A DNA stretch of 64,000 bases, taken from an uncultured Actinomycetes bacterium. GTDB lineage: Bacteria > Actinomycetota > Thermoleophilia > Gaiellales > Gaiellaceae. Below are positions 9,669 to 64,000 of the stretch, one piece after another. The first letter of the stretch is position 1. Every line of letters starts with the position of its first letter. The stretch spans positions 858,078 through 922,077 of the forward strand of contig CAWBSE010000003.1 of the NCBI GenBank assembly GCA_963791425.1. The letters run 5' to 3'. Both the position numbers and the translations under genes were made by a program. Below the pieces are notes generated by a model. It was not told the DNA's origin, ran no database searches, and saw only the letters and a list, made by a program, of their open reading frames with translations.

Positions 9669-12073
<2,405 letters not shown>

Positions 12074-12077
<4 letters not shown>

Positions 12078-12517
12078 GACTCTTCCCGCCGCTCGCCGAG
12101 GACGATCAGGATCCGGCCGGTACGCGGCCGCTGCGCCAGCGGCATCACGATCGTCAGCTGGCCGCGCTCGTAGTGCGCCTCGGCGCGCTCGGGGTCGACG
12201 TCCTCGGCCAGGCTGACGCTGCGCTGGAACTGTCCGTACTCGATCTCCATCTGGCGGTACGAGACGCGGCCCTCGAGCCGCGGCCGCCGCCGGATGCCGG
12301 TGATCGTCACGGTGCGCTCCGTCACGGTGATGTCGACGTCTGCCGGGTCGATGCCGGCGAGGTCGACGACCACTGTCACGGCCGGCGGAGTCTCGGACCG
12401 GTAACAGTCGATGTGCGGCTGGTAGCGCCCGCGCCGCGCGGCGAAGCCGGGCAGCTGCCACAGCTCGGAGAAGAGCTCTTCGATCTGCTCGGGAAGGATG
12501 TCGCGTTTTCTCGGCAC
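12074..12517 (-). CDS. Hsp20/alpha-crystallin small heat-shock protein
   Basis: 147-aa ORF. ACD-like core HIDCYRSETPPAVTVVVDLAGIDPADVDITV...AHYERGQLTIVMP. GTGA overlap with the lon start. Confidence 0.85.
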
Positions 12518-56618: not shown

Positions 56619-57104
56619 GTGCGCAGGCTGCTCCCACGTCGCCGCTGGCTGCGGATCGTCGTCTACTGCGTCCTCGGCGCGGTGGGCCTGCTCGCGGTCG
56701 CGCAGGTGATCCCCTACGGCCGCGGCCACTCGAACCCGCCGGTGACGAAGGAGCCGGCCTGGGACTCGTCCCGGACGCGCGAGCTGGCGAAGCGCGCGTG
56801 CTTCGACTGCCACAGCAACGAGACGACCTGGCCCTGGTACAGCAACGTCGCGCCCGAGTCGTGGTTGATCCAGCGCGACGTCGACGCGGGCCGCTCGACG
56901 CTGAACTTCTCCGAGTGGGACAAGCCGCAGGACACCGGGGTCGGCGACATCACCGAGGCGGTGAACGGCGGCGGCATGCCGCCCTGGTACTACACCCTCC
57001 TCCACTCGAGGTCGGGCCTCTCGAAGGCAGAGAAGCAGGAGCTCGTCGCGGGCCTGGCCAGGACGCTCGCAGCCTCCCCACCGATCGGTGGCGGAGGCGG
57101 TTAG
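56619..57104 (+). CDS. Heme-binding-domain (Haem_bd-like) membrane-anchored protein
   Basis: N-terminal TM. CFDCHS (CxxCH) followed by WPWYSNVAPESWLIQRDV..GGMPPWYY. Confidence 0.7.
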   Translation: MRRLLPRRRWLRIVVYCVLGAVGLLAVAQVIPYGRGHSNPPVTKEPAWDSSRTRELAKRACFDCHSNETTWPWYSNVAPESWLIQRDVDAGRSTLNFSEWDKPQDTGVGDITEAVNGGGMPPWYYTLLHSRSGLSKAEKQELVAGLARTLAASPPIGGGGG

Positions 57105-58637: not shown

Positions 58638-59648
58638 GTGCGTAAGGGTTCGATTCTCCAGATCCTGGGGCTGGGCATCCTGTTCGGAGTGGCGGGGACG
58701 CTCGTCGCCCTCCTGATCCCCTGGCTGCCCCCCGTCGCGTCCAAGCAGCGCGACCGGATCGACTTCGTCTTCTGGGTGACGACCGCGATCTGCATCGGCG
58801 TGTTCGCGCTCGTCTTCGCCGTCATCACCTACTCGGTGCTCAAGTTCCGCGTCCGTCCCGACGACGACTCCGACGGCCCGCCGATCCACGGCAACACCGT
58901 GATCGAGATCGTGTGGACGGCGCTGCCGGCGATCCTGGTCACCGTCATCTCCGTGGTCAGCGCCGTCGCGCTCGTCCAGAACGAGGCGACCGGCAAGGAC
59001 ACGATGAACGTGAACGTGACCGCCCGGCAGTTCATCTGGTCGTTCGCATATCCGGACGACGGCGGCCTGACCTCGGCGCAGCTCCGGCTGCCGCTCGGCC
59101 GCACGGTGAAGCTCCACCTGCGCGCGCTCGACGTCATCCACTCGTTCTGGGTGCCCGAGTTCGGGCAGAAGGAGGACGCGGTGCCCGGCCAGGAGACGAG
59201 CCTGGTGATCACGCCGACCAAGATCGGGACGTACAACGTGATCTGCACCGAGCTCTGCGGTCTCGGCCACGCCCTGATGCGGACTTCGGCGATCGTGATG
59301 CCACCGGCCGCGTTCCGGGCATGGGTGCACGACCAGAAAGAGGCTGCGAAGAGCCCGGGCGGCGGGGGGCAGGCGGTGTTCGCCGCCAACGGCTGCGCGA
59401 GCTGCCACACGCTGAAGGCCGCCAACGCGACGGGGACGGCAGGGCCCGACCTGGATAAGCTCCCCGACTACGCGAAGCAGGCGGGCAAGCCGCTCGAGGA
59501 CTTCGTCAGAGAGTCGATCGTCGATCCGAATGCCTATGTCCAGCCCGGCTTCCCGAAGAACCTGATGCCGCCGTTCTCGACCCTGCCCAAGGACCAGCTC
59601 GACGCGCTGGTCACGTACCTGATCGCCTCCAGCAAGGGAGCGAAGTGA
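58638..59648 (+). CDS. ctaC: Cytochrome c oxidase subunit II with fused C-terminal cytochrome c domain (caa3-type)
   Basis: CuA site HSFWVPEFG..CTELCGLGHALM. Heme c site CASCH. Confidence 0.9.
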   Translation: MRKGSILQILGLGILFGVAGTLVALLIPWLPPVASKQRDRIDFVFWVTTAICIGVFALVFAVITYSVLKFRVRPDDDSDGPPIHGNTVIEIVWTALPAILVTVISVVSAVALVQNEATGKDTMNVNVTARQFIWSFAYPDDGGLTSAQLRLPLGRTVKLHLRALDVIHSFWVPEFGQKEDAVPGQETSLVITPTKIGTYNVICTELCGLGHALMRTSAIVMPPAAFRAWVHDQKEAAKSPGGGGQAVFAANGCASCHTLKAANATGTAGPDLDKLPDYAKQAGKPLEDFVRESIVDPNAYVQPGFPKNLMPPFSTLPKDQLDALVTYLIASSKGAK

Positions 59649-59678: not shown

Positions 59679-61584
59679 GTGAGCGCGCCCCGGACGCCGA
59701 AGACGCTCCGCGACTACTTCCTGAAGGCGGGCTGGATTCGCGCCGCCTGGATGATGTGCCTCTTCTGGGGCATCGGCCTCGGCATCGTCCTGCTCTTCCG
59801 CTCGTGGGCCGGCTGGGATCCGCTCTTCCTGTGGTCGGTGATCACCGTCGTGGCGACGCTGACCATGGCGCCGATCGGCTTCCTCGGCGGGCTCGGCTGC
59901 TTCGACTACTGGATCCGGTACGCGACCGGCGCGCCGACCGTGCCCGAGGACCACTCGAGCCACGGCGGCAAGACCTGGCACGACTACTTCCGCCCGAACA
60001 CCGACCACAAGGTGATCGGCGTCCAGTACCTCGTCACGACGATCGTCTTCTTCGTCGCGGGCGGGATGATGGCGATGCTGTTCCGCGCGGAGCTCGCGCG
60101 GCCGGGCATGCAGTTCGTCGACAACCAGACCTTCAACGGCCTGGTGTCGGTGCACGCGGCCCTGATGATCTTCCTGTTCGTGATCCCGGCGTTCGCCGGC
60201 CTCGGCAACTACGTGATCCCGCTGATGATCGGCGCGCCGGACATGGCGTTCCCGCGGTTGAACGCGCTCTCGTACTGGCTGCTGCCGGTCGCCGGCACGA
60301 TGATGCTGCTCAGCTTCCTCGTCCCCGGCGGTGCGTTCGCGACCGGCTGGACGAGCTACGCGCCCCTGGCGACCGACCAGCCGCTGGGGCAGGTGTTCTT
60401 CAACATGGGCGTCCAGTGGGCAGGCGCGTCGTCGATCATGACCGCGCTCAACTTCCTGGTCACGATCATCACCATGCGCGCGCCGGGGATGACCTTCTGG
60501 CGCATGCCGCTGCTGGTGTGGGCGAACTTCACGACCTCGCTGCTGGTCGTGATCGCGACGCCGTTCATCGCCGGCTCGCAGTTCTTCGTGATGTTCGACC
60601 GCATCATGCACACCAACTTCTTCGATGCGGCCGACGGCGGCTACGTGCTCGGGTACCAGCACATCTTCTGGTTCTACTCGCACCCGGCGGTCTACATCAT
60701 GATGTTGCCAGGCTTCGGGATAGCCTCGGAGGTCATATCCACGATGTGCCGGAAGCCGATCTTCGGCTACCGGCTGATGGCCCTGTCACTGATGGCGATC
60801 CTCGTTCCTCGGCTTCTCCGTGTGGGCACACCACATGTTCGTCGCCGGCGTCGCGCCGTGGCTGCGCATCCCGATGATGGTCACGTCGATGATCATCGCG
60901 GTGCCGACCGGGATCAAGGTGTTTTCCTGGCTGGCAACGATGTGGGAGGGGAAGATCCACTTCAACACGCCGATGCTGTTCGCGCTCGGCTTCGTGTCGA
61001 TGTTCGTGATCGGCGGCCTCTCCGGCATCTACCTCGCCGCCGTGCCGATCGACATCCACGTCTCCGACACGTACTTCGTCGTCGCCCACATTCACTACGT
61101 GCTGTTCGGCGGCTCCCTGTTCACGATCTTCGCGGGCATCTACTACTGGTTCCCGAAGATGACGGGGAAGATGTACAACGAGCGGCTCGGGAAGATCCAC
61201 TTCTGGATGACGTTCGTCGGGTTCAACCTCACGTTCTTCCCGATGCACTACCTCGGGACGCAGGGGATGCCGCGCCGCGTGTCCGACTACGCGCCGCGGT
61301 TCGGGACCCTGAACATGATCATCTCGATCTCGTCGTTCTTCCTCGGGATCTCGATCCTCGTGTTCCTCTACAACATGATCGTCAGCTGGGCCCGCGGCCC
61401 GCTGGCCGGCTCGAACCCGTGGCGCGCGAAGACGCTCGAGTGGCAGGTGTCGTCGCCGCCGCCGTACTTCAACTTCGACGAGATCCCGCAGATCGTCGGC
61501 GGCCCGTACGAGTACGGCGTGCCCGACGCGCAGCACGCGGTGTTCAACGGCGACCGCACCGAGCACGAAGAGGTGCACGCGTGA
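59679..61584 (+). pseudogene. ctaD: Cytochrome c oxidase subunit I, single frame disruption near 60800; N-terminal two-TM extension
   Basis: ORF 59679 frame runs up to ..LMALSLMAILV. ORF 60820..61584 frame resumes at FSVWAHHMFVAG. Motifs TDHKVIGVQYL, GNYVIPLMIGAPDMAFPR and HPAVYIMMLPGFG. Confidence 0.85.
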
Positions 61585-62425
61585 GGCATCTCCTGGTCGT
61601 CGCGAACGAGACCGTCGCCGGCAAGGAGCTGACCGACGCCGTGAAGAAACACGACGGCACCGGTGACCTCCAGGTCACGGTCGTCTGCCCGGTGAACGCG
61701 CCGAACGAGGGCTACGTCGTCTACCAGGACACGCGCCATGCGGCCGCGCGGCGGCGGCTCGACAAGACGCTCGCCGACCTGCGCGCGTCGGGTATCGCCG
61801 CCGACGGCTTCGTCGTCGAGTCCGATCCCGTCGACGCCGTGCGCGACGCGCTCGTCGCAGCTCGAGCCGCCCGTCGACGAGATCATCGTCTCGACGCACC
61901 CGGAGTCGAAGTCCGGCTGGCTGCGCCGCGACGTCGTCGAGGGGATCGACGAAGGTGGCGGGCGACATCCCCGTCGAGCACGTCGTCGTCGACCTGGCCC
62001 GCGAGGGCGGCGAGGCGAACGTGCTCGTGATCGCGAACGAGACGGTGCTCGGCGACGCGCTGCTCGCGCGGATCAAGGAGCGCGCGGCGAAGCAGCCGCC
62101 GGCGAGCTTCATGCTGATCTGCCCGCAGAGCGACCCGCTGATGCACGGCCATCCGGACGCCGAGCGGCGCCTGCGCCGCGCTCTCGCCGCCCTGCGCGGC
62201 GCCGGGATCGACGCCCACGGCCAGATCGCGCACCCCGACCCGTACACGGCGGCGATGCACGCCGTCCACGACGAGCGGGTCGACGAGATCATCGTCTCGA
62301 CGTTCCCGGGCGAGGCGCGCTCGAGCTGGCTGCGCAAGGACGTGGTCACGCGGCTGCGCGACGCAACGAAGCTGCCCGTCGAGCACATCGAGGTCGAGCC
62401 CGCACCGGAGGCGGTGACCGCATGA
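61581..62425 (+). pseudogene. Unknown internally duplicated two-domain protein inside the oxidase operon; two frame disruptions (about 61857 and 61952)
   Basis: GTG at 61581 (GTGA overlap with the ctaD stop). Repeat 1: RHLLVVANETVAGKEL..VDEIIVSTHPESKSGWLRRDVV..IPVEHVVV. Repeat 2: NVLVIANETVLGDAL..VDEIIVSTFPGEARSSWLRKDVV..LPVEHIEV. ATGA overlap with ctaE. Confidence 0.65.
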
Positions 62426-63027
62426 GCGCCCACGCCGAGCCGGCCCACGACCACCACGGCCCGCCGGTCGCGAACCAGAGCTCGACCGTCGACGCGCGCG
62501 TCCTCGGGATGCTCATGTTCATCGGGTCGGAGGTCATGCTCTTCGGCTCGTTCTTCACCGCCTACTTCTTCGTCCGGGTCGTCAACCACCCGCCGCACTG
62601 GCCGCCGCTCGGCTTCCACCTGCCCGTCTTCGTCGCCGGCGTCAACACGGTGATCCTGGTCACCTCCAGCTTCACGATGCACTGGGCGCTGACGTCGATC
62701 AAGCGCGGCGACCGCGCCGGGTTGAAGGCCGGGCTCTCCCTCACCTTCCTGATGGGCTTCTCGTTCCTGGCGACGCAGATCATGGAGTACGCGCGCATCG
62801 GCTTCGCGCCGCGCGACAACGCCTTCACGACGATCTTCTTCTCGCTCACCGGGCTGCACGGTGCCCACGTCTTCGTCGGACTGACCATCCTGCTGGTTAC
62901 GGCCATCCGTGCGTTCAGAGGCCACTACTCGCCGGACCATCACCATGGTGTCGAGCTCGCCGGGATCTACTGGCACTTCGTCGACATCATGTGGATCGTC
63001 GTCTACTTCACCGTCTACATCATCTGA
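62422..63027 (+). CDS. ctaE: Cytochrome c oxidase subunit III
   Basis: MSAHAEPAHDHHGPP..LGMLMFIGSEVMLFGSFFTAYF..FFSLTGLHGAHVFVG..YWHFVDIMWIVVY. Confidence 0.9.
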   Translation: MSAHAEPAHDHHGPPVANQSSTVDARVLGMLMFIGSEVMLFGSFFTAYFFVRVVNHPPHWPPLGFHLPVFVAGVNTVILVTSSFTMHWALTSIKRGDRAGLKAGLSLTFLMGFSFLATQIMEYARIGFAPRDNAFTTIFFSLTGLHGAHVFVGLTILLVTAIRAFRGHYSPDHHHGVELAGIYWHFVDIMWIVVYFTVYII

Positions 63028-63191
63028 GGAATCCGCTCCGCAGCGAGGCCGCGGCGTTCCGGTTCCTGATCGGGACGGGGATCTACTTTGCGGTGATCGC
63101 GATCGCGGCGGCGCTCGGCGGCCCCTGGGTGGGGCTCGGGGTGTTCGTCGCCCTTACTGCCGGCGTGCTGGTCTGGGCGTTTCGAGCCTGA
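62991..63191 (+). CDS. Possible small two-TM protein trailing ctaE (start uncertain)
   Basis: ORF 62991..63191: ..FRFLIGTGIYFAVIAIAAALGGPWVGLGVFVALTAGVLVWAF. The only canonical in-frame start is GTG 62991, inside ctaE. Confidence 0.35.
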   Translation: MDRRLLHRLHHLRNPLRSEAAAFRFLIGTGIYFAVIAIAAALGGPWVGLGVFVALTAGVLVWAFRA

Positions 63192-63853
63192 CCGCCATCA
63201 GAACGTAGAAGACGAGGTAGGCGGCGGTGAGCAGCACCGTGACGGCGACGGTCACGGCCGCGGCGCGCGCGAGCGAGGCGGGGTCGGCGAGGTGCGCGTG
63301 GAGCTGCGCCAGCCTCGCGCCGGGCTGCGTGAGCATGTCCCAGCTGTTCCAGCGCTTCACGCGCCCGAGGTAGACGCCGACGCTGACGAGCCCGAGCACG
63401 CCGAAGACGCCCACCCAGCCGGCGGCGGCGCCGAACCGGTGCCGTGCGACCGCGTGCACGAGGTACAGCGAGACGAAGCCGAGCAGCATCCCCGTCCACG
63501 CGAAGGCCGAGACCTCGACGCCGTCGAGCCACAGCGGCGCCCGTGAGACGCGCGAGAGGTGGACGAAGTCGGTGACGATGTACGGCGCGTTCGGCAGGAA
63601 CAGCAGCCAGAGCACGAGCGCCGGCGCCAGGACGAGCAGCGGCCGCCCGCGGCGGTAGCGGTCGTAGATCGAGCAGCGCGAGCAGCAGCGGGATCCAGGC
63701 GAGGAACAGGTTCCAGATCAGGAACCGGAAGCCGTAGGCGTCGTAGTGGCGTTCGCGGACGAGCTCGAGCCCCAGGCACAGCGCCGAGGCCACGCCCAGG
63801 CCGGCGAGCACGACGAGACGCTCGTTGGGGAACCGGCGTGTGCGAATACCCAC
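63154..63853 (-). pseudogene. DUF1361-like membrane protein, one frame disruption near 63670 (start GTG 63853 or ATG 63916)
   Basis: FRFLIWNLFLAWIPLLLALL (ORF 63083..63916 frame) continues after a 1-nt slip as IYDRYRRGRPLLVLAPALVLWLLFLPNAPYIVTDFVHL (ORF 63154..63615 frame). Confidence 0.6.
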
Positions 63854-64000
63854 GGGTACAGGGTAATCGCGGCGCTTTAGGACGAGGTAAGCACCGCGGG
63901 TCCCCGTCTGGGTCACCGCGGATCGGTGAACTCCCCGATTTCCGCCCCCGGCCCCGCTCGATACGACTGCCTGTCGATGGCGTTCCAGACGATCATCGAG

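Follow-up and report, generated by a model that had tools for sequence, protein, structure and literature searches.

The universal stress protein (USP) fold is known as a module that regulates membrane machines, and it can do so from within the operon of the machine itself. In Halomonas elongata, the USP TeaD is encoded in the same operon as the TeaABC TRAP transporter and modulates its activity (PMC9006882). The gene considered here, hereafter gene X, lies between ctaD and ctaE, which encode subunits I and III of a cytochrome c oxidase, in a stretch of 64,000 nucleotides of contig CAWBSE010000003.1 (assembly GCA_963791425.1) from an uncultured member of the Gaiellaceae; this whole stretch is referred to as the window, and positions given without further qualification are positions within it. 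TeaD is the closest functional analogy to X, being an operon-encoded USP that acts on a membrane machine, but it is a single-domain, ATP-binding protein, acts on a transporter and is not specifically related to X in sequence. Cytoplasmic USP-like modules with regulatory or dimerisation roles are also carried by membrane proteins such as KdpD and, in tandem, the CCC transporters (NKCC/KCC/NCC). These modules parallel the fusion of X to CtaD and the membrane-anchored copy of its domain that are described below, although no heme-copper oxidase is among their partners and their sequence identity to X is 10–14%. While the kind of system is thus a known one, a heme-copper oxidase as the proposed partner, a triplicated set of domains and a fusion to CtaD are unfamiliar.

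Two USP-fold domains in one soluble, cytoplasmic protein, as predicted for X, are found in Rv2623 of M. tuberculosis, UspE of E. coli and Salmonella, and 3LOQ of A. fulgidus. These tandem USPs, however, are only 12–14% identical to X, are not encoded inside oxidase operons and differ in the geometry between their domains; Rv2623 moreover binds ATP via the motif G-x2-G-x9-G(S/T), which X lacks. Closest to X in both sequence and structure is TT0030 of Thermus thermophilus (PDB 2IEL), a 'hypothetical protein' of structural genomics for which a literature search found neither a function nor a paper. TT0030 shares with X the motif (L/V)VVA-x-x-T, a proline after strand 2, ST-x-P...S-x-WLR and LPV-x-HV, and differs in being a single domain of 138 aa, in having AHRT where X has ANET and in lacking an oxidase neighbour. 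A further comparison is offered by CtaF, or subunit IV, of bacterial aa3/caa3 oxidases, which is encoded in the cta operon as are X and a small protein with two transmembrane (TM) helices, here called the 2-TM protein. The Bacillus order is ctaCDEF, and the gene for the 2-TM protein, which follows ctaE, holds the ctaF slot. Unlike CtaF, X has no TM helix; the 2-TM protein gave no significant sequence match to solved oxidase subunits or Pfam families, and the term 'subunit IV-like' is therefore a positional analogy only. The usual picture of a bacterial A-family cytochrome c oxidase is one of three or four membrane subunits that lack any soluble partner in the cytoplasm, and the open-access literature searched yielded no account of a cta operon that encodes a USP-like protein or of such a protein fused to subunit I.

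Gene X and the predicted fold of its product

Gene X measures 845 nt, equivalent to 281 codons and two surplus bases, and overlaps both of its neighbours. The GTG at 61581 overlaps the ctaD stop codon (61582–61584) as GTGA, and the TGA at 62423–62425 overlaps the ctaE start codon, ATG at 62422, as ATGA. An earlier reading of this DNA, made from the sequence without database searches and here called the original prediction, had described both overlaps, and the coordinates are exact; it had also described a gene of about 280 codons with two single-base breaks, which is borne out by tblastn, by the phase of GC content at third codon positions (GC3) and by repair of the sequence, all of which are taken up below together with the question of decay.

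More than 8000 relatives of X are present in the databases, well beyond chance expectation, of which the best 120 are uninterrupted proteins of 277–286 aa with up to 89% identity, carried as 'hypothetical' in the source annotation. Scans of X and of each half against Pfam and NCBIfam gave no usable family match, in keeping with the original description of the gene as uncharacterised, and Pfam Usp (PF00582) matched neither X nor either half at E<=10. A match of X to Exog_C was rejected as spurious, scoring 20 bits against a cutoff of 29.5 and covering only an Arg-rich helix of 26 residues. Labels given to X homologues by some JGI pipelines ('phosphopantetheine adenylyltransferase', 'predicted deacetylase', 'molybdopterin-guanine dinucleotide biosynthesis protein A' and 'acetyl/propionyl-CoA carboxylase alpha subunit') are mutually inconsistent, and no profile match obtained here backs any of them.

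The two halves of X are homologous, as had been proposed, with 39% identity over 137 aligned residues (E=8e-15), and the repeat motifs listed in the original prediction are present and conserved across the family. Among 58 X sequences, ANET occurs in 54 first domains and 46 second domains, and STHP/STFP...S(G/S)WLR and PVEH are conserved as well. On the predicted secondary structure, the conserved ANET follows strand 1, a proline follows strand 2, DP strand 3 and ST-x-P...S-x-WLR strand 4, and PV-x-H lies on strand 5. The X family shows no conserved Cys/His motif of the metal-handling kind, only the proline of the CP motif being invariant. The expectation that X would have no TM segment and would not be a canonical oxidase subunit also held: the maximum mean Kyte-Doolittle hydropathy over 19 residues is 1.19, no COX family of Pfam or NCBIfam matches X, and the features of the integral subunits CtaC/D/E/F, namely a TM helix together with COX1/2/3 or subunit IV homology, are lacking.

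The USP/HUP-like fold, offered at first as a guess, proved correct. A profile built from 17 members of the X family matches 2IEL with E=1.4e-9, profile positions 148–269 aligning with chain residues 4–136 and so covering the whole domain. The AlphaFold model of X (mean pLDDT 80.8, pTM 0.69) shows the order b1-a1-b2-a2-b3-a3-b4-a4-b5 twice, the elements of domain 1 extending from E2-7 to E130-134. A Foldseek search of the PDB with this model places 2IEL at the top (TM-score 0.78, 31% identity), followed by the tandem USPs 3LOQ, Rv2623 and UspE, the C-terminal domains of CCC transporters and the KdpD USP domain, and gives a probability of 1.0 for the USPs 3LOQ, 3CIS, 2JAX, 4R2J and 7JI4. Based on the profile match, the model and the structural matches, X is assigned as two divergent TT0030-type domains of USP fold in tandem. 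Its membership in the TT0030-like family is indicated by the whole-domain profile match and by the motifs VVA-x-x-T, ST-x-P...S-x-WLR and LPV-x-HV, and its tandem architecture by the homologous halves and the two complete domains in the model. Homology to Pfam Usp at the sequence level is supported only transitively, through a paralogous third copy of the domain that is encoded after ctaE and passes the Usp threshold.

The motifs after strands 1, 2 and 4 are predicted to sit at the C-terminal ends of the strands, which is where proteins of the USP/HUP class bind their ligands, and by this analogy the conserved residues of X may form a small-molecule site for a ligand other than canonically bound ATP. 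The classical USP ATP motif G-x2-G-x9-G-(S/T), sought with the pattern G..G.{8,10}G[ST], is found in none of the 58 X sequences and in one of 57 third-copy proteins; the equivalent stretch of X reads STHPxxxSGWLRR or STFPGxxxSSWLRK. Because this motif is absent, nucleotide sensing, which the original prediction had listed among the candidate roles, is unsupported in its canonical form.

Operon context, fusions to CtaD and an anchored third copy

The context of X was surveyed at 57 Gaiellales-type loci in species-representative genomes, comprising Gaiellaceae, Gaiellales, 'Thermoleophilia' and Actinomycetota metagenome-assembled genomes. The order ctaC-ctaD-X-ctaE is kept at every one of these loci with sufficient flank, as it is at every orthologue locus examined, those of more distant subfamilies included. 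The oxidase is of the caa3 type, since ctaC carries a C-terminal cytochrome c domain. In a Solirubrobacterales-type subfamily with 31–36% identity (loci L060–L062, one bin being named Solirubrobacterales), X is found in the same slot with a 4-nt overlap with ctaD, which is shared with locus L001, and a 1-nt overlap with ctaE. The P0136 subfamily, at 43% identity, has the same ctaC-ctaD-X-ctaE slot and overlaps and adjoins Caa3_CtaG, and placement of X within the operon is conserved in L060–L063, L065, L071 and L072. Genes for Caa3_CtaG, CtaA and CtaB lie nearby at some X loci, and frame-scrambled database proteins read from X into ctaE sequence. The oxidase operon that contains X is found in two or more orders of the class Thermoleophilia, Gaiellales among them, and X is best read as an accessory or regulatory subunit specific to this class. 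In the genome paper on Gaiella occulta, oxidase genes are given as Gocc_0001, 0002 and 0004, with 0003 passed over (PMC6741124); this gap is consistent with the same unremarked X gene in the cultured species.

In one clade, ctaD and X form a single in-frame reading frame with X at the C-terminus of CtaD. The JGI soil contig L066 has a clean frame that runs from the CtaD helices via ...GARHAVVFAPEEIGGELTETEKRT-ILVIADETV... to the end of X and is followed by ctaE, and the junction recurs in L064, which comes from an independent ENA sample. P0239, only 51% identical to L066, keeps both the junction and the conserved linker HAV(I/V)FAPEE(V/I)GGEL, and the fusion linker is as long as the tail of CtaD and the N-terminus of X taken together in the window. 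Clean in-frame junctions are limited to L066, L064/P0252 and P0239; P0124, P0199, P0232, P0217 and other long 'fusion' proteins were rejected as frame-scrambled products of noisy assemblies. Persistence of the fusion through about 50% divergence rules out a sequencing artefact. In all A-family oxidase structures subunit I has its C-terminus on the cytoplasmic side, and the fusion would therefore locate X at the cytoplasmic face of subunit I. The link between X and the oxidase, proposed originally from their tight coupling in the window, is thus strengthened both by a gene order that is invariant across two orders and by natural CtaD–X fusions.

A third copy of the domain is supplied by the gene following ctaE, which at about 54 of the 57 loci encodes an M-x-NP-L/F-RSE..AF motif, two TM helices, an Arg-rich segment and a domain about 47% identical to X domain 1. 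The third copy of L001 passes Pfam Usp with 34.3 bits against a cutoff of 24 (E=4.2e-8), and the third-copy profile matches 2IEL at E=1.7e-12 and UspF (4R2M) at E=0.003. At the Solirubrobacterales loci, the 2-TM-anchored third copy is encoded 2–3 kb downstream. A positively charged segment after TM2 predicts, by the positive-inside rule, that the third copy is cytoplasmic. In the window, the 2-TM gene abuts the ctaE stop codon with no spacer and has no ATG at the M-x-NPLRSE position, its start being CTG at 63024 or GTG at 62991, the latter inside ctaE.

Proposed role and alternative explanations

Taken together, the gene order, the fusions and the modelled fold make it reasonably probable that X docks on subunit I of the caa3-type oxidase from the cytoplasmic side and serves there as an accessory or regulatory subunit. 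Translational coupling inside ctaC-ctaD-X-ctaE would have X made in fixed proportion with the oxidase. X, as a soluble cytoplasmic protein, would then bind the enzyme near the CtaD C-terminus and, where the anchored third domain is present, could pair with it via the usual USP dimer interface. By analogy with TeaD, X might tune or protect oxidase activity through its small-molecule site, for example in starvation or dormancy.

Several observations weigh against such a role. The support for an association between X and the oxidase is genomic and structural, and the lack of the ATP motif in 58 of 58 X sequences leaves the idea of a ligand without positive support. The single-domain TT0030 gene of Thermus is not beside oxidase genes but upstream of lptF/lptG, a divergent tandem paralogue (L069 and L070, 6001–6807; about 35% identity to X, ANET degenerate) lies off the oxidase locus, and a second divergent tandem paralogue with degenerate motifs is found on a 3-kb contig with no oxidase gene. 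The window, L017 and L028 keep only the 2-TM part and lack the third domain, so that pairing of X with that domain cannot be obligatory. In the fused clade, the motifs of the second X domain are degenerate, and whole-chain superposition of the X model on tandem USPs is poor (TM-score about 0.33–0.34), the arrangement of the two domains being different. The exceptions to oxidase placement are confined to more divergent paralogues with degenerate motifs; another single-domain relative, also not linked to an oxidase, sits among Usp, Asp23 and sigma-factor genes. The L069/L070 paralogue lies about 320 bp downstream of a hemA-ccmE-ccmF-ccmG-ccmH cluster, a second link of the family to cytochrome biogenesis that may be coincidence.

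A more far-reaching version of the accessory-subunit reading can be put forward as speculation only. X, together with the 2-TM-anchored third copy where there is one, would form a stable cytoplasmic regulatory subunit that senses a nucleotide, second messenger or other metabolite at a remodelled USP pocket and throttles or protects the oxidase near the cytoplasmic entrances of its proton pathways. Allosteric nucleotide control has long been discussed for mitochondrial cytochrome c oxidase, and the proposed subunit would be its bacterial counterpart, used in dormancy by the abundant, slow-growing soil Thermoleophilia.

Alternatively, X might act only transiently as an assembly or maturation factor, for instance by holding CtaD/CtaE at their cytoplasmic face while cofactors are inserted or subunits joined. 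Operon membership and coupling fit this explanation equally well, and the divergent tandem paralogue beside the cytochrome c maturation (Ccm) cluster and the Caa3_CtaG, CtaA and CtaB genes near some loci also speak for it. We nonetheless consider it unlikely, as a permanent covalent fusion to CtaD in one clade and a permanently membrane-anchored copy in most relatives point to an association that lasts, the Cys/His motif expected of metal handling is missing, and we know of no USP-fold protein that serves as a haem or copper chaperone.

The frame breaks raise a different possibility, namely that they are real and that X, perhaps with the whole operon, is a decaying pseudogene in this genome. 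By three-frame translation, the frame of X is 0 between 61581 and about 61853, +1 over 61855–61950 and +2 over 61952–62425. A tblastn search with an intact orthologue returns exactly three segments, the first ending at 61853 and the second beginning at 61855, and the GC3 of the segments is 0.93, 1.00 and 0.97, the phase moving exactly at the two junctions. Deletion in silico of T 61855 makes X read '...RDALAQLEPPVDEI...' / DALAQLEPPVDEI, matching intact homologues including their DALAQLEPP, and removal of one base near 61951 restores '...I(x)KVAGDIPVEH'. The lesions extend to neighbouring genes: ctaD is split by one surplus base near 60807 (60800–60815, plus strand), the orthologue matching frame 3 to 60806 and frame 1 from 60808, and the frame of a DUF1361-family gene on the minus strand (63163–63865), which converges with the cta operon, is broken between 63669 and 63692. 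There are thus four single-base breaks within about 3 kb, and these, together with the missing third USP-like domain downstream and the 2-TM gene without a clear start, could be taken as signs of decay.

Decay is nevertheless improbable. Every lesion is a single inserted base, with no in-frame stops and no deletions, GC3 remains at 0.93–1.0 inside each X segment, and the gene for the catalytic subunit, ctaD, would need to be dying too. Genes upstream of 59.6 kb are intact, and within the window the reading frames of MoxR, the periplasmic binding protein, ctaC and ctaE are unbroken. The ratio of nonsynonymous to synonymous substitution rates (dN/dS) of repaired X against close relatives is 0.16–0.23 in both halves, and X is shown to be under purifying selection; the climb to 0.4–0.6 against distant relatives is attributed to saturation of dS (about 0.5–0.6 in a genome of 70% GC) and not to relaxed selection. 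Similar frame errors occur in long-read metagenome bins of the same family (L048, L054 and L055, with scrambled-frame proteins). Since ctaD and the DUF1361 gene show the same type of lesion, the simplest reading is that the two breaks in X are probably assembly or sequence errors rather than decay.

It is very unlikely that X merely shares a transcript with the oxidase as a general stress protein that has no physical or specific functional link to it. USPs are often stress-induced, and single-domain relatives of X occur alone, as in Thermus, or among the stress-related and sigma-factor genes mentioned above; against this stand the same slot with overlapping stops and starts, kept across lineages at only about 31–43% identity, and the CtaD fusion in a clade that is itself about 50% divergent, neither of which a passenger gene would be expected to show. 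Equally hard to credit is a classical ATP-binding tandem USP like Rv2623 that reports the ATP level to the oxidase via the canonical pocket, for although the tandem architecture fits Rv2623, UspE and 3LOQ at the fold level and the conserved residues are located where USPs bind nucleotide, G-x2-G-x(8-10)-G-[ST] is replaced throughout by STHP/STFP...WLRR and X scores nothing against Pfam Usp.

Features of the locus and their significance

Features of the cta operon and gene X in the window
Feature	Position	Strand	Remarks
ctaC	58638..59648	+	oxidase subunit II with C-terminal cytochrome c domain (CASCH); COX2 and Cytochrom_C in orthologue
ctaD	59679..61584	+	oxidase subunit I; one surplus base near 60807
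ctaD/X coupling junction	61567..61584	+	Shine-Dalgarno-like GAAGAGG 61567-61573, 7-nt spacer, GTGA start/stop overlap
Gene X	61581..62425	+	tandem TT0030-like/USP-fold protein (predicted); 280 codons after removal of two surplus bases
X domain 1 (residues 1-137)	61581..61996	+	motifs LLVVANETV, VVCP, DP, IIVSTHPESKSGWLRR, IPVEHVVV; both frame breaks inside
First surplus base in X	61854..61857	+	most simply T at 61855; frame 0 to +1; tblastn, GC3 phase, repair
Second surplus base in X	61950..61952	+	near 61951; frame +1 to +2; translation, tblastn, GC3
X domain 2 (residues 145-271)	62018..62398	+	motifs VLVIANETV, LICP, HPDP, IIVSTFPGEARSSWLRK, LPVEHIEV; aligned to 2IEL
X/ctaE coupling junction	62407..62425	+	Shine-Dalgarno-like GGAGG 62407-62411, 10-nt spacer, ATGA
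ctaE	62422..63027	+	oxidase subunit III; intact
2-TM protein gene	63024..63191	+	small 2-TM protein, conserved N-terminal NPLRSE..AF motif; candidate subunit-IV-like partner; USP-like domain absent here

A scan of the plus strand of the operon found no sigma-70-like promoter or intrinsic terminator, such a scan being weak for this phylum. Large antisense open reading frames (ORFs; 61675–62976 on the minus strand and others) were rejected as real genes: the GC3 signal tracks the plus-strand frames, and these ORFs were taken for shadows of high-GC coding sequence.

Some features of the oxidase genes and their surroundings may be recorded in their own right. CtaD in the window has about 640 aa, with an N-terminal extension of about 90 residues that contains two hydrophobic stretches (59679–59960, plus strand); subunit I in the related lineage L071 (3521–6004) has 827 aa with an N-terminal DUF4389 domain. 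The cta-X operon has two recurring neighbours in L060–L062 (about 11000–12400), a small gene for a CBS-domain protein and a gene for a di-haem cytochrome c; the first of these is found again in the P0136-type locus L071 (1467–1886). Binding of adenine nucleotides is common among CBS domains. The window also has an ORF of 161 aa (56619–57104, plus strand) upstream of the periplasmic binding protein gene, with a hydrophobic segment at its N-terminus and a haem-c-type motif, CFDCH.

As a candidate for a new accessory subunit of the oxidase in a major soil lineage, X is well supported and open to testing, with a mechanism that is inferential. Binding of X to the enzyme, if it occurs, would make X an oxidase subunit of a new type and would provide the TT0030/2IEL structural-genomics family with its first functional context, as well as offering a direct route to studying the post-translational control of respiration in these poorly studied and hard-to-culture bacteria.

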